Source of the DNA: a virus
Reading direction: 5' to 3' (one strand)
Virus record (IMG/VR): IMGVR_UViG_3300025030_000039
Span: 252,878-316,877 of that record
Length of the DNA stretch: 64,000 nucleotides
Notes under the pieces: generated by a model
What the model was told of the DNA's origin: nothing
Seen by the model: only the letters and a program-made list of their open reading frames with translations
Database searches by the model: none
Program-made: the position numbers and the translations under genes
Shown here: one piece after another, positions 12,450 to 21,556 of the stretch
Position numbering within the stretch: the stretch's first letter is position 1
Layout of the letters: the number at the start of each line of letters is the position of its first letter

Positions 12450-12914
12450 TTGTTTTCATTTATTAAGTATAGATTACGGATGCATTAATCCGTTTTCTTT
12501 TTGTTTGATAATTTTATGTTCTAGAACCTCGGGACCACTTGCTCGTGTTATACAGAGCTGTACATGTACTTATCAATAAGTTAGGAATATAAGAAATGCT
12601 TGTTGGTGCAAGTTAAGTAGTGTTTCGGATCTGATTGTCTGACAAACAAATTAAAGAAAGACTGATCCGTTTAATACTTTTGGGATTTTTTATTAAATTT
12701 ATAAATAATTATGGCTTCCGAGCAGTATTTTCTGTGCCGGAAGGATTTTAATTAGGGAAAACAGGTACATGATACATTTTAAATATGTACGTTGGTGCAA
12801 GTTAAGTTGTTGTTTTCGTCTGAAGTACCGATTTACATACATTATAAAGTATTTAAAAGAATATTTTTACTTTTAAATTTTTGTTATTAAATTTAATATA
12901 TTAAAATAATAACA
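12450..12914. other. 465-bp structured non-coding region (several hairpins, direct repeat GTTGGTGCAAGTTAAGT x2, TCTAGAACCTCGGGACC motif)
   Basis: No ORF; hairpins at 12475..12497, 12627..12672, 12711..12745; plus-strand composition switches from G/T-rich to A/C-rich near here. Confidence 0.5.
12882..12900 (+). promoter_or_regulatory. conserved promoter-like motif variant
   Basis: TGTTATTAAATTTAATATA upstream of ATG 12915. Confidence 0.45.
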
Positions 12915-13121
12915 ATGAAAATTTGGAAAGATAATAAAGACTATATAATTGTTACTAGCAATAAAAGATTATACACTCTAATAGGAACTCCAAATGGATA
13001 TCAATTGCAAAATCATAATTCAAGAGTAAATGATGATTGGGCTCCTTCAAAAGGTACTTTATTAAAGAATATTCCTAACAAAATTAAACGTAAAGTGTTT
13101 AAATTAAATAAAAATACTTAA
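12915..13121 (+). CDS. hypothetical small protein
   Basis: ORF. Confidence 0.5.
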   Translation: MKIWKDNKDYIIVTSNKRLYTLIGTPNGYQLQNHNSRVNDDWAPSKGTLLKNIPNKIKRKVFKLNKNT

Positions 13122-13144
13122 AATCTTATTTTTTTATTTAAAAC

Positions 13145-13163
13145 TTTGTTATTATATTTATTT
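13145..13163 (+). promoter_or_regulatory. conserved promoter-like motif instance
   Basis: TTGTTATTATATTTATTTA upstream of ATG 13203. Confidence 0.5.
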
Positions 13164-13202
13164 AATTAATTAATATTTATACACTTATAAAATTTTAAAG
13201 CT

Positions 13203-13892
13203 ATGGAATTAAAAGACTTAGTAGAATTAAGACAAATTGGACTATCATTAGTCGATAAAACAACAGAATTAATCAAAAAAGAAGTAGAAGGTGGAAAAGT
13301 ATCAGAAGATACTCTTTTTGATTTATTACATAATTCGTTTAAAAAATTAACACCTGTTAAAGAAACAAAGAAAAAAGAACAAAAGGTTAAAAAAGAACAA
13401 AATATTGAAAAAGTTTTTAATACAAATACTCTCACAGGTGCAATACAAGAAATTTTAACTAAAACAAATCCTGATACAGAATTTGATATTAATACAATTG
13501 ATGAAACTGTTAAATCATTCTTTCCAAATTTAGAATTTAATAAATCATCTATTCAAAAAATTCTTTCTAGATTAAAAGATAAACAAATTCTAATAAGAGT
13601 TAGAAGCGGTTTTTACAAAGCTAATACTAATCCTATTATCGAAAAAGCTAAAAAACCTAAAGAAGAAACAACTAAAGTTATTGTACCTACAACTATTAGA
13701 GACAAAGTATTAAAATTAATGCCGGAATCAAATGTAGCAATTGATGTACAAATGATTTTTGAAAAACTTAAAAAGCATTATCCTAACAAAAAATATAGCA
13801 TTAACTCATTATATCCTCAATTAACATTCTTAGTACAAGATAATCTTCTTAAAAGAATTAAAGCTGGTTTATATGCACGAGTTAAAGCATAA
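13203..13892 (+). CDS. hypothetical Lys-rich protein (229 aa)
   Basis: ORF. Confidence 0.6.
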   Translation: MELKDLVELRQIGLSLVDKTTELIKKEVEGGKVSEDTLFDLLHNSFKKLTPVKETKKKEQKVKKEQNIEKVFNTNTLTGAIQEILTKTNPDTEFDINTIDETVKSFFPNLEFNKSSIQKILSRLKDKQILIRVRSGFYKANTNPIIEKAKKPKEETTKVIVPTTIRDKVLKLMPESNVAIDVQMIFEKLKKHYPNKKYSINSLYPQLTFLVQDNLLKRIKAGLYARVKA

Positions 13893-13898
13893 AATAAT

Positions 13899-13928
13899 AA
13901 AGGGTACTTATGTACCTTTTAATTTTTT
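13899..13928 (+). terminator. rho-independent terminator
   Basis: AAAGGGTAC-tta-TGTACCTTT hairpin plus T-run. Confidence 0.55.
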
Positions 13929-14003
13929 ATTAATTACTTTTTTATTATATTTACTTAATATTTATTTTTTTATTCTTTCATATTTTTGGGGTTCATATTT
14001 TGT

Positions 14004-14040
14004 AATGGGTAACTAGCCAAGAAGTTACCCATTATTTTTT
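14004..14040 (+). terminator. hairpin plus T-run (second terminator or attenuator)
   Basis: AATGGGTAAC...GTTACCCATT followed by ATTTTTTT. Confidence 0.5.
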
Positions 14041-14260
14041 TATTACTTTATAATACAAAAATCAATTATTGATTTTTGATTCATTTAATTAACTAATTAA
14101 ATCTTTTAGATATTATTAATATCAATTGGCGTATTATATATTGTTGAAGTTTAATACTTCATTTACTTTTATAACTTTATTACCTTTAAAGGTGTATAAA
14201 AGTTTGTAATTTTATTATATATTAATTTTACTTTATTAACTATTTTTATCTTTTAATATT

Positions 14261-14279
14261 TGTTATTATATTTATACTA
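14261..14279 (+). promoter_or_regulatory. conserved promoter-like motif instance
   Basis: TGTTATTATATTTATACTA upstream of ATG 14300. Confidence 0.5.
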
Positions 14280-14299
14280 TAATTAAAATAATATAAACA

Positions 14300-19201: not shown

Positions 19202-19388
19202 TATAAAATACCGACTAAAAATAACAACAATTAGTACTGATTGTACATTTACTCTAAACTTTAAAAATTCATCTGATAAAACAATATCATTAACAAATGG
19301 CTATAACCCATCAATCGAACTATTCATTACCTACAATCAATCTACTCATACTTTCATACTAACAAATATGAAATAATTACCTCAAACA

Positions 19389-19417
19389 AAAAAGAGCTTA
19401 ACCGCTCTTTTTTTTCA
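19389..19417 (+). terminator. rho-independent terminator
   Basis: AAAGAGC-ttaacc-GCTCTTT followed by an 8-T run. Confidence 0.6.
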
Positions 19418-19568
19418 TCACCCACGAACCATCAACTTCTTATTCTTTATCTTTCCATCCTCTATTACAAGAACCTCTATATCCATTAATTTTTGGACCC
19501 ATCCCAAAAAAATAAACTTTATTAAATATGTTATTTTCTTTAAAATAAATTTCCAGTTCTTTATTTTT

Positions 19569-19588
19569 TATATTATATTTATATCATT
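19569..19588 (+). promoter_or_regulatory. conserved promoter-like motif variant
   Basis: TATATTATATTTATATCATT upstream of ATG 19628. Confidence 0.45.
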
Positions 19589-19627
19589 AAATAATTATTA
19601 AATATTAACTTATAAAATTACTACAAA

Positions 19628-20083
19628 ATGAAAACACAAACCGAAAAAACAGAAAAAATGCTTAAAAAAGAAAAAGCAATGCTAAACAACATGCTCACTC
19701 ACTTAAAATCAAACAGTATCAAATGTCAAATCGACAAAATCAAAGAAATCATCATTCAGGAAAAAACTGATAAAGTTGAAGAAATCAAAATCGATGAATT
19801 AATTCTTAACGGTTATTACAAATCAAATGAAAAATTCAACTTCAAACTATCAGTTCATCCCGAAGAAATAAATGAAAACGGTCACCCTCAAGTAATTCTT
19901 CAACTAGAAGTTGAATCTAACAAATTCATAAAAATGCACCCCCAAACTAACGGTCAACTAACTTTTATGATCAAAAACTTTCAAACAGGTATAGAAGAAA
20001 CTTCTACTATAGAAAACTCTACAATAGAAAACTCTACTCCTGAAATAACTACAAAAGATAACAAAAACAACAAAAAGAAATAA
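19628..20083 (+). CDS. hypothetical protein, tandem paralog of 20400..20900
   Basis: Shared N-terminus MKT..KTEK.LKKEK.M..NM.TH.K and C-terminus ...HPE..NENGH.QV...Q TNGQL.FM..NF. Confidence 0.6.
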   Translation: MKTQTEKTEKMLKKEKAMLNNMLTHLKSNSIKCQIDKIKEIIIQEKTDKVEEIKIDELILNGYYKSNEKFNFKLSVHPEEINENGHPQVILQLEVESNKFIKMHPQTNGQLTFMIKNFQTGIEETSTIENSTIENSTPEITTKDNKNNKKK

Positions 20084-20104
20084 CAAACCCCTATACCAAA
20101 TCAA

Positions 20105-20131
20105 AGGAGTATTCAAACACTCCTTTTTTTT
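20105..20131 (+). terminator. rho-independent terminator
   Basis: GGAGT...ACTCC hairpin followed by an 8-T run. Confidence 0.5.
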
Positions 20132-20344
20132 CGGCCTTCACCCACCAATTCATTCCTTTCATCATACATCAACCACAATGCACGATTACTTTATACCACT
20201 TAGTTACATGAACCCTTTGTCACGAGCGCAAAATTTCCTTATTCTCTTCATGAACCCTACCCTACCATTCGGGCCCATCCCTCCTAAAATTTATTTAAAA
20301 TTTTTTAAAATACTTTATTAATTATTTCCGATTCATCCCGATTT

Positions 20345-20365
20345 ATATTATATTTATATAACAAT
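20345..20365 (+). promoter_or_regulatory. conserved promoter-like motif instance
   Basis: TATATTATATTTATATAACAA upstream of ATG 20400. Confidence 0.5.
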
Positions 20366-20399
20366 TAAATATTTATAAACTTAATAAAATTACTACAAA

Positions 20400-20900
20400 A
20401 TGAAAACAGAAATTTCAAAAACAGAAAAAAGACTTAAAAAAGAAAAATCAATGTTCTCAAACATGATTACACACTTTAAAGCAAACGGTATCAAATCAAT
20501 CGAACTAATTCCAATCGAAATCCTAAAAGATATCGCAAAAGAACCTACATTCGAACAACCTGAGGACCCAAACAATCCAAATCCAAAACCAATCGAAAAA
20601 GAAAAAGAACCGGAACCAACTGAAAAAGAATACAAAGTTATCGGTTCACACACCACAAACAAAAAATTCAAATTCGAACTTACAATCCATCCCGAAGATA
20701 CAAATGAAAACGGTCACCTACAGGTCCTACTTCATATGGAATGCAAACCAGACCACTACATTACAATGCGTCCCCAAACAAACGGACAACTACTATTCAT
20801 GGTTAACAACTTTGAGGTCGGTCTAATTGAACCAAAAACAGAAGAACCTTTATTAGAAACAAACTCAACAACTACAAAACAATCAACAAAGAAAAAATAA
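20400..20900 (+). CDS. hypothetical protein, tandem paralog of 19628..20083 (Pro/Glu-rich linker)
   Basis: See 19628..20083. Confidence 0.6.
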   Translation: MKTEISKTEKRLKKEKSMFSNMITHFKANGIKSIELIPIEILKDIAKEPTFEQPEDPNNPNPKPIEKEKEPEPTEKEYKVIGSHTTNKKFKFELTIHPEDTNENGHLQVLLHMECKPDHYITMRPQTNGQLLFMVNNFEVGLIEPKTEEPLLETNSTTTKQSTKKK

Positions 20901-21556
20901 CCACCCTACAAACTTAAACGGGAATTCAATCAAAATTCCCGTTTTTAAAGGCCCACCCACGACCCTTACATGCATCATTTACCAACCTCTTTCATCCGAC
21001 GGATTATCATGAATACCGGCCTATAGGAATCAAATATTTTTCGTGTCATGATCACGACCTGTTGTTAAATGGGCCTTCACTAACTTGAGACGTCGGGCTA
21101 GATCGGATTATTATATAATTCAATATGATATCATTTTAATATCATTATAATAAGTAAAATGTAAATGAATAAGGTTAGATGATGTTAATATAAATGTGTT
21201 ATTGATATGGGTATAGAGTAAAAACGATCATTATAGATTTAAATTTGAATGGATAGATAGAGGCGGACCGGTTTGGGAGACCAGAAGATAAGAGATAATT
21301 CTTTATATAGAAGAAGATTGTTATTTATATTGTTGTATAGAGAATGTTTTTTATATATAGGTAGTATTTTGTAAGAGTGTATAGATGTTTGTAATTATAT
21401 AGAGTGTTGTTATAAAGAAGGTTGTTTATGAGACTATAGATATTATATAGAGTGTTATGTAGTATTTGTTTGGCGGACCGGTTTGATTTTTGTGTACGGG
21501 ACCAGATTAGAGTTGTTGGATGTATTTTGGGATATATAATAAAAAATAGAGTTTAT
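20900..21556. other. second non-coding region where plus-strand composition switches (C-rich, then AT-rich, then G-rich with TATAGAG-rich repeats; GGCGGACCGGTTTG x2)
   Basis: Same C-rich / AT / G-rich layout as 9480..9900; shares GGCCCA(T/C)CC...ACATGCAT with 9598..9625; direct repeat at 21262 and 21473. Confidence 0.45.
20918..20947 (+). terminator. rho-independent terminator
   Basis: AACGGGAATT...AATTCCCGTT hairpin plus T-run. Confidence 0.6.

Follow-up and report, generated by a model that had tools for sequence, protein, structure and literature searches.

An amino/keto asymmetry between the two DNA strands, of the deamination type, is known from vertebrate mitochondrial DNA. For R-loops, a known determinant is a strong G-over-C skew on the non-template strand. 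The locus compared here with these systems lies in a window of 64,000 nucleotides, the whole stretch of DNA that was analysed. This window comes from LR756500.1, the curated genome (462 kb, 24% GC) of an uncultivated "huge phage". A zone of about 33 kb carries the local strand asymmetry; it begins some 5 kb to the left of the window and ends near window position 28 kb. It includes two switch points, termed J1 and J2, where the plus strand turns from C-rich to G-rich.

Strand composition across the zone

In 1-kb windows, the plus strand had a positive GC skew at 9.5-13 kb (+0.26 to +0.50), a negative one at 14.5-21 kb (-0.13 to -0.61) and again a positive one at 21-25.5 kb (+0.34 to +0.67). The cumulative G-C curve dipped to a minimum at 9,871, peaked locally at 13,413 and reached a second minimum at 21,059. 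The three flips reported in a first-pass annotation were recovered (9,871; about 12.5-13.4 kb; 21,059-21,100) and were highly significant and unique in the genome, but the block extents and gene classes given there had to be revised. The plus strand had been called G/T-rich from 21.1 kb to the end, whereas the G-rich block stops abruptly at about 24.95 kb. The bias to the right of the second G block fades by 28 kb, and from there on the plus strand is C-/T-rich because the genes are on the minus strand. Likewise, the sense strands of all other genes had been described as A/C-rich, but the mean sense-strand GC skew of 618 ORFs was +0.23 (sd 0.15) and only 16 of them were below -0.1, 11 of these within 5-21 kb of the window. 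In normal genes here the sense strand has more G than C; the exceptions are the plus-strand genes at 8.4-9.4 kb and 15-21 kb, where C far exceeds G. G-type genes do have G-rich sense strands, yet their A at least equals T, so "G/T-rich" holds only relative to their neighbours. When all 462 kb were scanned in 500-bp windows, the sense-relative skew was below -0.3 only at 8-9 and 15-20 kb and above +0.65 only at 21-22 kb.

The size of the bias was measured at two-fold synonymous sites as C/(C+T) and G/(A+G), for which the genome baseline was 0.078 and 0.079. At 17-21 kb the values were 0.553 for C and 0.034 for G, at 10.9-12.5 kb 0.033 and 0.379, and at about 21.4-25 kb 0.030 and 0.351. The quantitative skew analysis that had been suggested as a check found the blocks to differ far beyond chance: when the two-fold sites of each gene were tested against this baseline (binomial tests), p values ranged from 1e-8 to 1e-35. 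Elsewhere the genome was without synonymous-site strand asymmetry (0.078 versus 0.079), and therefore the bias is not ordinary chromosome-wide replication skew.

The bias was strongest at synonymous and non-coding sites. Zone spacers had a skew of -0.61 to -0.67 with 19-25% C and 4-6% G, compared to 11% C and 10% G in the intergenic DNA of the genome. Four-fold C/(C+T) was 0.23-0.33 versus 0.04-0.07 in the bulk, leucine in the C block was encoded by 58 CTN and 13 TTR codons (bulk CTN 18%), and ATC made up 39% of the Ile codons versus 2.6% in the bulk. The spacers, the four-fold sites and the Leu TTR/CTN choice all shifted in the direction of the two-fold sites. Third positions shifted most, either T from 0.45 to 0.25 with C from 0.03 to 0.26, or A from 0.45 to 0.38 with G from 0.06 to 0.19. 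For the highly expressed capsid gene, C enrichment was found at two-fold NNY sites only. On each side of the modules, the strand running 5' to 3' away from J1 or J2 had exchanged A for G and lost C, and its complement had exchanged T for C and lost G.

Genes on the opposite strand followed the DNA strand. Two minus-strand genes in the C-type zone (2864-3527) had an elevated sense G3 (15/79, p=0.0012) and a C3 of 3/62, and the plus strand there was C-enriched as in the neighbouring plus-strand genes. Two minus-strand paralogs at 24925-26867 had an elevated sense C3 (35/245, p=4e-4) and a depleted G3 (2/185, p=3.5e-5), with the plus strand still G-enriched and C-depleted. The complementary bias of these genes bears out the claim that the flips are independent of the coding strand. 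Together with the spacer, four-fold and leucine shifts, it shows that the bias is a deamination-like asymmetry (A+C versus G+T) at the level of the DNA strand and neither codon selection nor, in all likelihood, foreign DNA.

The switch modules and their gene blocks

To the left of J1, the plus-strand genes at 7353-9430 are C-enriched and G-depleted in their sense strand (two-fold C 0.26-0.37, G 0.00-0.05). The gene at 8834-9430 is followed by a hairpin terminator (9445-9477) that scores as such on both strands, and then by a C-rich plus-strand spacer (9478-9620; C 0.29, G 0.11) bearing CCGGACCGG (9494) and GGCCCATCC-ACATGCAT (9601-9619), motifs unique to this region of the 462-kb genome. An AT-rich stretch comes next, then a tandem array of about 8-9 copies of the 18-bp unit GTACCTCTAGTAAAGTTT (9620-9862). 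The GenBank record starts at window position 9852, at J1; its curators moved record starts to an intergenic region, in some cases the suspected origin (PMC7162821). The AT-rich stretch, the array and the record start would each suit initiation at J1.

J1 itself was placed at the cumulative G-C minimum at 9871, where the plus strand turns from C-rich to G-rich. The following 1 kb (9871-10908, plus strand) is non-coding, C-poor and G-rich (C 0.08, G 0.24, skew +0.48), with TATAGAG repeats, direct repeats, TCTAGAACCTCGGGTCCG at 10744 and a 47-nt inverted repeat that is 98% complementary (10145-10191 and 10521-10567). Its RNA fold z-score was -4.9, and no ORF and no Rfam hit were found in it. The first G-type block, TU1 (10909-12449, plus strand), consists of small ORFan genes with a two-fold G of 0.38, a two-fold C of 0.033 and a third-position skew of +0.89; homologs were absent from every database searched. 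The boundary region to its right (12450-12914, plus strand) has a terminator hairpin (12476-12493), further hairpins, TCTAGAACCTCGGGACC (12520) and two copies of GTTGGTGCAAGTTAAGT (12602 and 12791). The G excess decays across it, being still +0.13 to +0.22 out to 13.3 kb and gone by about 13.4 kb. A 78-bp homology between 12459-12534 and 16617-16694 is colinear across the right edge of TU1.

The genes at 12915-17815 (plus strand) are moderately C-type (two-fold C 0.20-0.38), each with its own promoter-like motif GTTATTATATTTAT, and an ORF-free C-rich spacer of 728 bp (16375-17102) has a skew of -0.41. An extreme C-type block follows at 17832-20900 (plus strand) with four ORFan genes (17832, 18767, 19628 and 20400; two-fold C 0.43-0.72, G 0.00-0.09). 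In its C-rich spacers, which have the skew of -0.61 to -0.67, GGNCCCATCC is located about 72 nt upstream of a variant promoter. One promoter-like motif precedes both G-type and C-type genes.

At J2, a terminator hairpin and then GGCCCACCC...ACATGCAT (20917-20975, plus strand) repeat the arrangement of 9445-9619. The switch point (21059-21100) includes the second cumulative G-C minimum, and the genome's two regions of most extreme skew meet there. An independent Logan contig (SRR1658462) covers 19572-21584 at 100% identity, and therefore the junction is not an assembly artefact. The adjacent non-coding tract (21101-21556, plus strand) is nearly without C (0.04), has four TATAGAG repeats and two copies of GGCGGACCGGTTTG...GGGA(G)ACCAGA, and gave a fold z-score of -3.5. 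The second G-type block, TU2 (21557-24928, plus strand), contains five tightly packed paralogs with a two-fold G of 0.21-0.49, a two-fold C of 0.00-0.08 and a skew of +0.46 to +0.75. They share the N-terminus MKYIKEYEEF and the C-terminus NADDFGFFDN, and two are leucine-rich-repeat (LRR) proteins. TU2, to whose family the minus-strand paralogs at 24925-26867 also belong, is within a native 29-member paralog family, the other members of which are at baseline composition, and its right edge coincides with two overlapping stop codons.

Both minus-to-plus switches are therefore in long non-coding modules that carry genome-unique motifs in the same orientation. The common order is a terminator, a C-rich spacer with GGCCCAYCC...ACATGCAT, an AT-rich stretch and a C-poor non-coding tract with TATAGAG repeats and CGGACC-type motifs. 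The motifs earlier listed as shared by the boundaries, set against shuffle expectations, were real and genome-unique for GGCCCAYCC (9601, 20272 and 20950), CGGACCGG (9495, 21264 and 21474) and the TATAGAG tracts of both G-rich non-coding regions, but both copies of the likewise genome-unique GGCGGACCGGTTTG (21262 and 21472) are within the 21-kb boundary. The suggestion of duplicated ori-like modules fits this common architecture and orientation.

Origin of the asymmetry

The composition flips look like the mutational footprint of DNA synthesis that starts at J1 and J2, rather than like recent inversions. We tentatively put first, at somewhat less than even confidence and with a mechanism that we infer, that J1 and J2 are start sites of outward-moving nucleic-acid synthesis driving the local asymmetry. 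By reasoning from established strand-asymmetry models, the minus-to-plus polarity would match forks or transcripts departing from the site and would be opposite to that of a terminus or a resected double-strand break. Most likely, replication would initiate at J1 and J2 and pass through a strand-displacement or D-loop/R-loop phase. The displaced strand, left single-stranded, would undergo C to U and A to hypoxanthine deamination, and the copied strand would be protected. Over many generations, under an otherwise extreme AT pressure, third positions and spacers could be pushed to opposite extremes on either side, and even the amino-acid content of the fast-evolving ORFan genes. For the G-type LRR paralogs dispersed elsewhere (190 and 208 kb), the simplest account would be that they are copies that retained their composition by descent. 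A dependence on position favours this reading: the sense C3 of the plus-strand genes climbs towards J2 through 0.13, 0.13, 0.16, 0.16, 0.26, then, beyond TU1, 0.28, 0.47 and 0.67-0.72, and to the right of TU2 the bias fades.

Several findings stand against such a replication origin. To the left of J2 the values fall in steps (about 0.65, 0.3 and 0.15) rather than smoothly with distance, and they change abruptly from gene 17504 to its neighbour 17832. Each G block is flat and stops near the end of a transcription unit (12.45 and 24.95 kb), as transcription or a rearrangement of blocks would explain more readily than a replication gradient. J2 is only 4-7 kb from the convergence of two transcription arms, so an origin there would put almost all genes head-on to replication. 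G-type composition was also found in IS607-like TnpB elements elsewhere in the genome and is therefore not exclusive to the zone. In LR756501.1 (735 kb), the only relative found, nothing comparable was seen within 50 kb of the syntenic region.

Recent in-place inversion is logically possible but weakened, and we regard it as unlikely. In this case the blocks at 9.87-12.45 and 21.1-24.95 kb would have equilibrated as minus-strand genes in a single C-type zone, its plus strand being C-rich for some position-dependent reason, and their inversion would have made sharp-edged G-rich islands. The flat blocks with sharp left and fairly sharp right edges are what inversion would leave, and they roughly mirror their flanks (TU1 G3 0.38 and C3 0.03; flanks C3 0.26-0.37 and G3 0.02-0.04). 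Undoing the TU2 inversion would restore a co-oriented minus-strand array of seven paralogs (21.5-26.9 kb), on the strand of most family members, and the bidirectional terminator at 9445-9477 would be expected at a formerly convergent junction. However, the block ends have no inverted repeats, and no inverted copies of GGCCCAYCC or the other boundary motifs were found anywhere in the 462 kb; the two left boundaries have motifs in common in direct orientation, and this is not a prediction of independent inversions. The colinear 78-bp homology leaves only about 10 bp after the TU1 stop codon for a breakpoint, the G excess persists to 13.3 kb without abrupt mirroring, and at TU2 the breakpoint would have to fall exactly on the two overlapping stop codons. 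Two recent events within one 15-kb stretch would be required, and the C-type zone itself would be left unexplained.

Somewhat less probable still is divergent transcription, in which strong promoters at J1 and J2 would fire outward both ways and the G-rich nascent RNA would form R-loops, exposing the displaced non-template strand to deamination while shielding the template. A long leftward transcript would then run antisense to the C-type genes at 15-21 kb. This predicts the same polarity as synthesis starting at J1 and J2, and sigma-70-like promoter matches (21085-21114 plus; 21139-21110 minus) mark the start of the G blocks, whose ends coincide with a terminator (12476-12493) or a convergent gene and show weak read-through tails. 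But antisense transcription would have to cross 6-25 kb of plus-strand genes with their own promoters and terminators, promoter-like matches numbered 125 versus 136.6 expected in shuffled sequence, and transcription elsewhere in the genome leaves zero synonymous asymmetry.

Selection on the nucleotides themselves, favouring one-strand depletion of G or C, e.g. to abolish G/C-containing palindromes such as restriction sites or to rid early transcripts of stable structure or nuclease target sites, appears improbable. In its favour, the zone is a module of small ORFan genes that each have a promoter and terminator, as is common in early or host-takeover regions; the skew could take either sign under this reading, and both occur; and RNA structure in the C-type spacers was not above shuffled (z=+0.7). 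Against this, the opposite-strand genes have the complementary and not the same sense bias, so that selection acting on the RNA or the sense strand is excluded; skew peaks in the spacers that separate a terminator from the following promoter; and the meeting of both signs at motif-sharing modules with consistent polarity is unexplained. A mosaic of blocks from genomes with other strand composition, as the IS607-like TnpB elements may be, is very improbable, and the first-pass annotation too had judged a foreign origin unlikely: the block proteins are all ORFans without homologs in the databases searched and the mobile TnpB elements are also G-type, but native promoter-like motifs precede all composition classes, TU2 is in the native family, the opposite-strand genes are complementary, and typical foreign-signature genes here (412-420 kb) raise both C3 and G3, whereas the blocks raise one base and push the other below baseline.

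The amino/keto, deamination-type pattern found in the zone has its known counterpart in vertebrate mitochondrial DNA.

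Extent of the compositional anomaly

The complete genome of LR756500.1 was analysed and its positions were converted to window coordinates. This GenBank record of 462,018 bp, unannotated and named "uncultured phage", has a GC content of 24% and contains the window at 100% identity. By its accession series, it belongs to the circular huge-phage genomes that Al-Shayeb et al. 2020 (PMC7162821) curated manually. Position 1 of the record corresponds to window 9,852, immediately past an 18-bp tandem array. The sole difference between the two sequences is a 30-nt indel at ~1,959. The 30 nt missing from LR756500.1 supply the rest of the 3' arm in a long AT-rich hairpin (window 1919-1990), and the indel is a version difference at a terminator-like inverted repeat. 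Transcription is organised in two arms, with ~480 ORFs on the minus strand from window 25 kb to ~420 kb; the plus-strand arm, with ~138 ORFs, begins at ~420 kb, passes the window start and ends at 25 kb.

The phage carries genes for 25 tRNAs and one tmRNA; U34 is present in every tRNA for Lys, Glu and Gln. A tRNA with the anticodon CUA (L003:10652-10720, record ~110.6 kb), called tRNA-Pyl by ARAGORN, is a candidate amber suppressor. To the right of the skewed region, an 827-aa protein has a precomputed Pfam match to the major-vault-protein shoulder domain, and a sigma-70 region-2 protein is encoded near its gene (loci 30755-33238 and 28178-28723, both on the minus strand).

The plus-strand GC skew was +0.26 to +0.50 at 9.5-13 kb, went down to -0.61 at 18-19 kb and reached +0.6 to +0.67 at 21-23.5 kb. 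The cumulative G-C curve bottomed out at 9,871 and at 21,059 and peaked locally at 13,413. The skew flips claimed in the first-pass annotation are real, as seen in the skew windows, in the cumulative curve and in the p-values of single genes at two-fold sites (1e-8 to 1e-35). Two of its descriptions had to be corrected. The G-rich plus strand, which was said to continue to the window end, stops at 24.95 kb where the coding strand changes, and from 28 kb on the plus strand is C-/T-rich. Ordinary genes were said to have A/C-rich sense strands, but the mean sense GC skew was +0.23 (sd 0.15) over 618 ORFs. A value below -0.1 was found in only 16 of these ORFs, 11 of which lie at 5-21 kb of the window.

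The actual anomaly is a cluster of plus-strand genes with C far above G in the sense strand, at 8.4-9.4 and 15-21 kb (C-type), together with two exaggerated blocks of G far above C, at 9.87-12.45 and 21.1-24.95 kb (G-type). When the whole genome was scanned in 500-bp windows, sense-relative skew below -0.3 occurred only at 8-9 and 15-20 kb and skew above +0.65 only at 21-22 kb. The genome-wide extremes therefore abut at 21.06-21.10 kb, at the second minus-to-plus switch point, J2 (21,059-21,100). An assembly chimera across J2 was ruled out, since independent assemblies agree there. Overall, the original observation was partly confirmed and was sharpened.

Nature of the bias and native origin of the genes

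The bias was quantified at two-fold synonymous sites, as C at NNY codons (C3) and G at NNR codons (G3). In 475 genes of the minus arm, C3 was 0.078 and G3 0.079, and most of the genome is therefore without strand asymmetry. At 17-21 kb, C3 was 0.553 and G3 0.034, whereas the values were 0.033 and 0.379 at 10.9-12.5 kb and 0.030 and 0.351 at 21.4-25 kb. Translational codon selection was ruled out because spacers, four-fold sites, the first positions of Leu codons and the amino-acid content all shift. In the genes at 17-21 kb, four-fold C/(C+T) was 0.23-0.33 (bulk 0.04-0.07), CTN outnumbered TTR among the Leu codons by 58 to 13 (bulk CTN 18%) and ATC made up 39% of the Ile codons (bulk 2.6%). 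The signature expected of selection was found in the major capsid gene, where C is raised at two-fold NNY codons only. The intergenic spacers were the most skewed, with values of -0.61 to -0.67 and with 19-25% C and 4-6% G, compared to 11% C and 10% G in the intergenic DNA of the genome. The non-coding tracts at 9,871-10,908 and 21,101-21,556 had C contents of 0.08 and 0.04, respectively.

At third positions of the C-type block, T decreased from 0.45 to 0.25 and C increased from 0.03 to 0.26. In the G-type blocks the loss was in A (0.45 to 0.38) and the gain in G (0.06 to 0.19), and C stood at 0.01. Codon positions 1 and 2 shifted in the same direction as the third, and the encoded ORFan proteins are consequently poor in Gly/Val/Ala or in Pro/His/Thr/Gln. 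The bias is thus a transition bias on the amino/keto axis that hits opposite strands on the two sides. The next-base context of the G or C gains, inspected for an editing-enzyme motif, showed no sharp motif, with just slightly fewer G gains before G. The phage tRNAs fail as a cause of the G-ending codons, since all their anticodons have U34 or G34.

Genes on the opposite strand allowed the DNA strand and the sense strand to be separated. The minus-strand genes at 2,864-3,527 had an elevated sense G3 of 15/79 (p=0.0012) and a C3 of 3/62, and the plus-strand genes around them a sense C3 of ~0.16. In the minus-strand genes at 24,925-26,867, which adjoin the second G-type block, sense C3 was elevated (35/245, p=4e-4) and G3 depleted (2/185, p=3.5e-5). 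At both sites, genes of the two orientations show one and the same bias on the DNA strand and complementary biases on their sense strands, which rules out selection on mRNA or codons and supports the claim that the flips are independent of the coding strand. A bias following the sense strand of each gene, as in transcription asymmetry, was not observed, as the plus-strand genes at 15-21 kb have the reverse polarity.

Along the plus arm, binned sense C3 stayed at baseline from -32 to -5 kb and then took values of 0.13, 0.13, 0.16, 0.16 and 0.26 up to TU1, the first G-type gene block (10909-12449, plus strand). Beyond TU1 it was 0.28, 0.47 and finally 0.67-0.72 beside 21.1 kb, a stepwise and not a smooth increase toward J2. 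To the right of TU2, the second G-type gene block (21557-24928, plus strand), the bias was back to baseline by 28 kb. The asymmetric zone thus spans ~33 kb, between about -5 and +28 kb, which is about 7% of the 462-kb genome. Asymmetry over whole replichores to a terminus was not found, C3 and G3 being equal (0.078/0.079) over 28-410 kb. In the genes at 412-420 kb both C3 and G3 are raised, unlike in the G and C blocks. That cluster (412000-421000, L009), which has a higher GC content and includes a radical-SAM-like protein, lies near the divergence point of the transcription arms and looks recently acquired.

From 445 kb through 17.5 kb, almost all plus-strand genes have the promoter-like motif GTTATTATATTTAT 35-55 nt upstream, a variant of it serves the genes at 18.7-20.4 kb, and most of these genes end with a hairpin terminator. 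The zone is therefore a native module of small ORFan genes that are transcribed one by one. Genes of both composition classes have this promoter type in front of them. In the form (T)TTGTTATTATATTTAT, a promoter-like motif stands 35-55 nt upstream of almost every plus-strand gene at 1-17500 and 445000-462048 (~35 kb), and minus-arm genes have (A/T)TTATTATATTTAC 3-37 nt upstream instead. The two motif types are probably two temporal promoter classes.

The five genes of TU2 belong to a family of at least 29 paralogs with the N-terminus MKYI(K/L)EYEEF in common and, in many cases, the C-terminus NADDFGFFDN; most members elsewhere have baseline composition. At synonymous third positions, two LRR paralogs at 190 and 208 kb, also G-type, match the window copies at 75-81% identity, and their composition can therefore have been retained by descent. 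Family loci in the window are 21557-26867, 2864-3527 and 8834-9430, and further ones are found in L001-L010, e.g. at 322811-327906. The conserved N-terminus continues as (I/L)xE in at least 29 paralogs and the C-terminus is (Y)EHLxNADDFGFFDN in many, whereas the middles are unrelated and include LRR domains. The N-terminus resembles the T4 capsid-targeting sequence MKTYQEFIAE, in which a protease site follows (I/L)xE. The paralogs may be packaged or ejected proteins.

Homologs of the block proteins were found only in the genome itself when Pfam, PHROGs, 50,697 phage records (tblastn), IMG/VR (pattern scans) and 5.8 billion proteins were searched. The neighbouring 827-aa protein had no match in a metagenome scan, and an independent Logan contig was 100% identical and hence offered no polymorphism to polarise. 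No close relative for a comparison of synteny turned up in the collections searched. The only relative found was the 735-kb phage LR756501.1, which shares 48% amino-acid identity on one protein, the 827-aa protein. The region is absent there, and the skew within 50 kb of the syntenic gene is of the ordinary coding-linked kind. A horizontally acquired island is very unlikely given the native promoter motifs, the native paralog family and the lack of homologs elsewhere in these databases, and in this respect the earlier judgement that foreign origin is unlikely holds.

G-type composition is not exclusive to the zone, as IS607-like TnpB elements are G-type inside their own boundaries. TnpB-like IS elements lie outside the window at 377507-378724, 438275-439393, 232168-232797, 358954-359583 and 245348-246583 (L005-L009). 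Their synonymous G is 0.25-0.49 and limited to the element, and one pair is IS607-like with an HTH/serine recombinase remnant. Single-stranded transposition fails as the cause of their G-type composition, since this best-defined element is of the serine-recombinase type.

The switch-point modules and their possible origin

The two switch points, J1 at 9,871 and J2, both lie in long non-coding regions with an identical order of elements on the identical strand. The last C-type gene has a terminator hairpin (9445-9477 at J1, ~20917-20946 at J2). Next come a C-rich spacer with GGCCCAYCC and then ACATGCAT (9601-9619 and 20950-20975), an AT-rich stretch, a G-rich tract that is poor in C and has TATAGAG repeats and motifs of the CGGACC type, and finally the G-type genes. 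Motif counts were compared with shuffle expectations. In the 462 kb, GGCCCAYCC and CGGACCGG have three copies each, and TCTAGAACCTCGGG and GTTGGTGCAAGTTAAGT two copies each, all in this region. The J1 module additionally contains the 18-bp tandem array, direct repeats and a 47-nt inverted repeat, 98% complementary, with arms 329 nt apart. The non-coding tracts of the modules had no ORFs and no Rfam match, either at gathering thresholds or at E<=1.

The arms of the inverted repeat (10145-10191 and 10521-10567) are flanked by direct repeats (GTAGGRTGTAATCAC..., AAGGTGATAGAACGAAGG) within 10108-10570. Relative to the inverted arm, the direct repeats come in one order in one copy and in the reverse order in the other; this segment looks rearranged or invertible. 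Between 12580 and 12830, within a 465-bp non-coding region without Rfam match, the two GTTGGTGCAAGTTAAGT copies stand 189 nt apart with a hairpin after each. These units could be small RNAs or regulatory sites.

The earlier suggestion of ori-like modules holds as a possibility, since both switches share the module architecture in direct orientation. Features that might belong to an origin are the AT-rich stretch, the tandem array and the inverted repeats at J1 and the AT-rich stretch and TATAGAG repeats at J2. No initiator was identified; a tandem winged-helix-like protein at 13203-13892 gave only sub-threshold Pfam matches. On both sides of each switch point, the strand running 5'->3' away from it is the G-enriched and C-depleted one. 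Such a polarity would be expected if this strand were preferentially single-stranded, either as the lagging-strand template or displaced strand of an outgoing fork or as the non-template strand of an outgoing transcript. The complement would be protected meanwhile. We favour J1 and J2 as local initiation sites that have a strand-displacement, D-loop or R-loop phase, and we put the whole chain slightly short of an even chance. That initiation at 9.9 and 21.1 kb exposes one strand over several kb and so leaves a local mutational footprint of mitochondrial strength seems rather doubtful. Several findings speak against initiation. The profile is stepwise, the G blocks are flat and end near the ends of transcription units, the 21.1-kb site is only 4-7 kb from the convergence of the two transcription arms, and the one distant relative has nothing comparable. 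The mutational bias at the level of the DNA strand is by itself much better supported than this full chain.

Another explanation is that TU1 and TU2 equilibrated as minus-strand genes in the C-type zone and were then recently inverted. Since inversion leaves the sense composition unaltered, G islands can arise only if the blocks had first equilibrated in that orientation. TU1, with a G3 of 0.38 and a C3 of 0.03, does roughly mirror its flanks (C3 0.26-0.37, G3 0.02-0.04), and re-inverting TU2 would give a co-oriented array of seven paralogs. However, no inverted copies of the boundary motifs occur genome-wide, no flanking inverted repeats are among the top pairs, and the motifs common to the two left boundaries stand in direct orientation. 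The homology between 12,459-12,534 and 16,617-16,694 is colinear across the right edge of TU1, where the G excess fades gradually to 13.4 kb, and the right edge of TU2 coincides with two overlapping stop codons. The C-type zone itself would still need explaining. The C-rich spacers are not inverted copies of the G-rich non-coding tracts, only promoter-proximal parts being similar, and directional substitutions between the 78-bp homologs at 12.46 and 16.6 kb (7 vs 4 transitions) were too few to mean anything. Recent inversion is improbable. Replication skew combined with recent inversions, as the first-pass annotation had it, did not hold, because synonymous asymmetry is absent outside the ~33 kb and inverted motif copies are lacking. 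Its interpretation is partly supported, in the strand-independence, the native origin and the possible ori-like modules.

A replication terminus at the switch points, a pac site and a resected (5'->3') double-strand break were rejected on polarity: all of them would make the plus strand G-rich on the left-hand side, and the observed polarity is the reverse.

Should initiation with local single-strand exposure be correct, the region would reveal from sequence alone where and how a phage of 462 kb begins its DNA synthesis, and asymmetry at synonymous sites could serve to locate initiation sites and to infer the replication mode of uncultivated huge phages. It would also mean that the amino-acid composition of fast-evolving early genes can be reshaped by mutation pressure and, as a caution, that local zones of this kind can dominate cumulative-skew plots. 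Under inversion, the region would instead record a very recent rearrangement in a hyperplastic early-gene region.

Comparison with known systems

The GC skew of bacterial and phage chromosomes switches sign at origin and terminus and has been used for huge phages (PMC7162821). The phage region resembles it in the minus-to-plus switch in non-coding DNA, the independence of gene orientation and the involvement of synonymous and non-coding sites. It differs in that the bias covers ~33 of 462 kb with the rest symmetric (0.078 vs 0.079), that the skew of up to ~0.75 and the 5-9 fold increase of synonymous C or G are far above the usual, and that two switch points lie 11 kb apart. Strand asymmetry is routinely used to locate origins in uncultivated phages, but as a genome-wide trend only. 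Here the genome-wide synonymous asymmetry is zero and the entire signal, of mitochondrial-like strength, is in ~7% of the genome with two switches in motif-sharing modules.

Large phages have early modules for host takeover, such as the terminal redundancy of SPO1 and the first-step-transfer region of T5. The zone is similar in its clustered small ORFan genes, each with a strong promoter-like motif and a terminator, beside a large non-coding tract. We know of no compositional strand flips in modules of this type. With transcription-associated asymmetry and R-loop regions the G blocks share the excess of G over C on the non-template strand and ends near transcription-unit boundaries, whereas the C-type genes have a polarity opposite to their own transcription and the bias follows the DNA strand. 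Adenovirus, phi29-like viruses and others of this kind copy a linear double-stranded DNA from its ends by strand displacement. Their G-rich strand is the one with its 5' end pointing away from the start site, and the skew is strongest near that site. The phage is alike in both respects, but its genome assembles as a circle, and neither inverted terminal repeats nor terminal-protein genes were identified.

The heavy and light strands of vertebrate mitochondrial DNA differ in composition because a strand-displacement intermediate exposes the displaced strand to deamination. There, as in the phage, an A+C-rich strand opposes a G+T-rich one, third-position G is nearly absent on the A+C-rich strand, the effect is strongest at neutral sites, the amino-acid composition is dragged along and the magnitudes are comparable. 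The phage bias differs in being local, in a double-stranded DNA phage and with a step-like gradient. Taken together, the phage feature is a strand compositional asymmetry that is unusual for its locality and strength and that, by analogy, appears to resemble the mitochondrial asymmetry more closely than ordinary replication skew in its strength and its confinement to ~33 kb.
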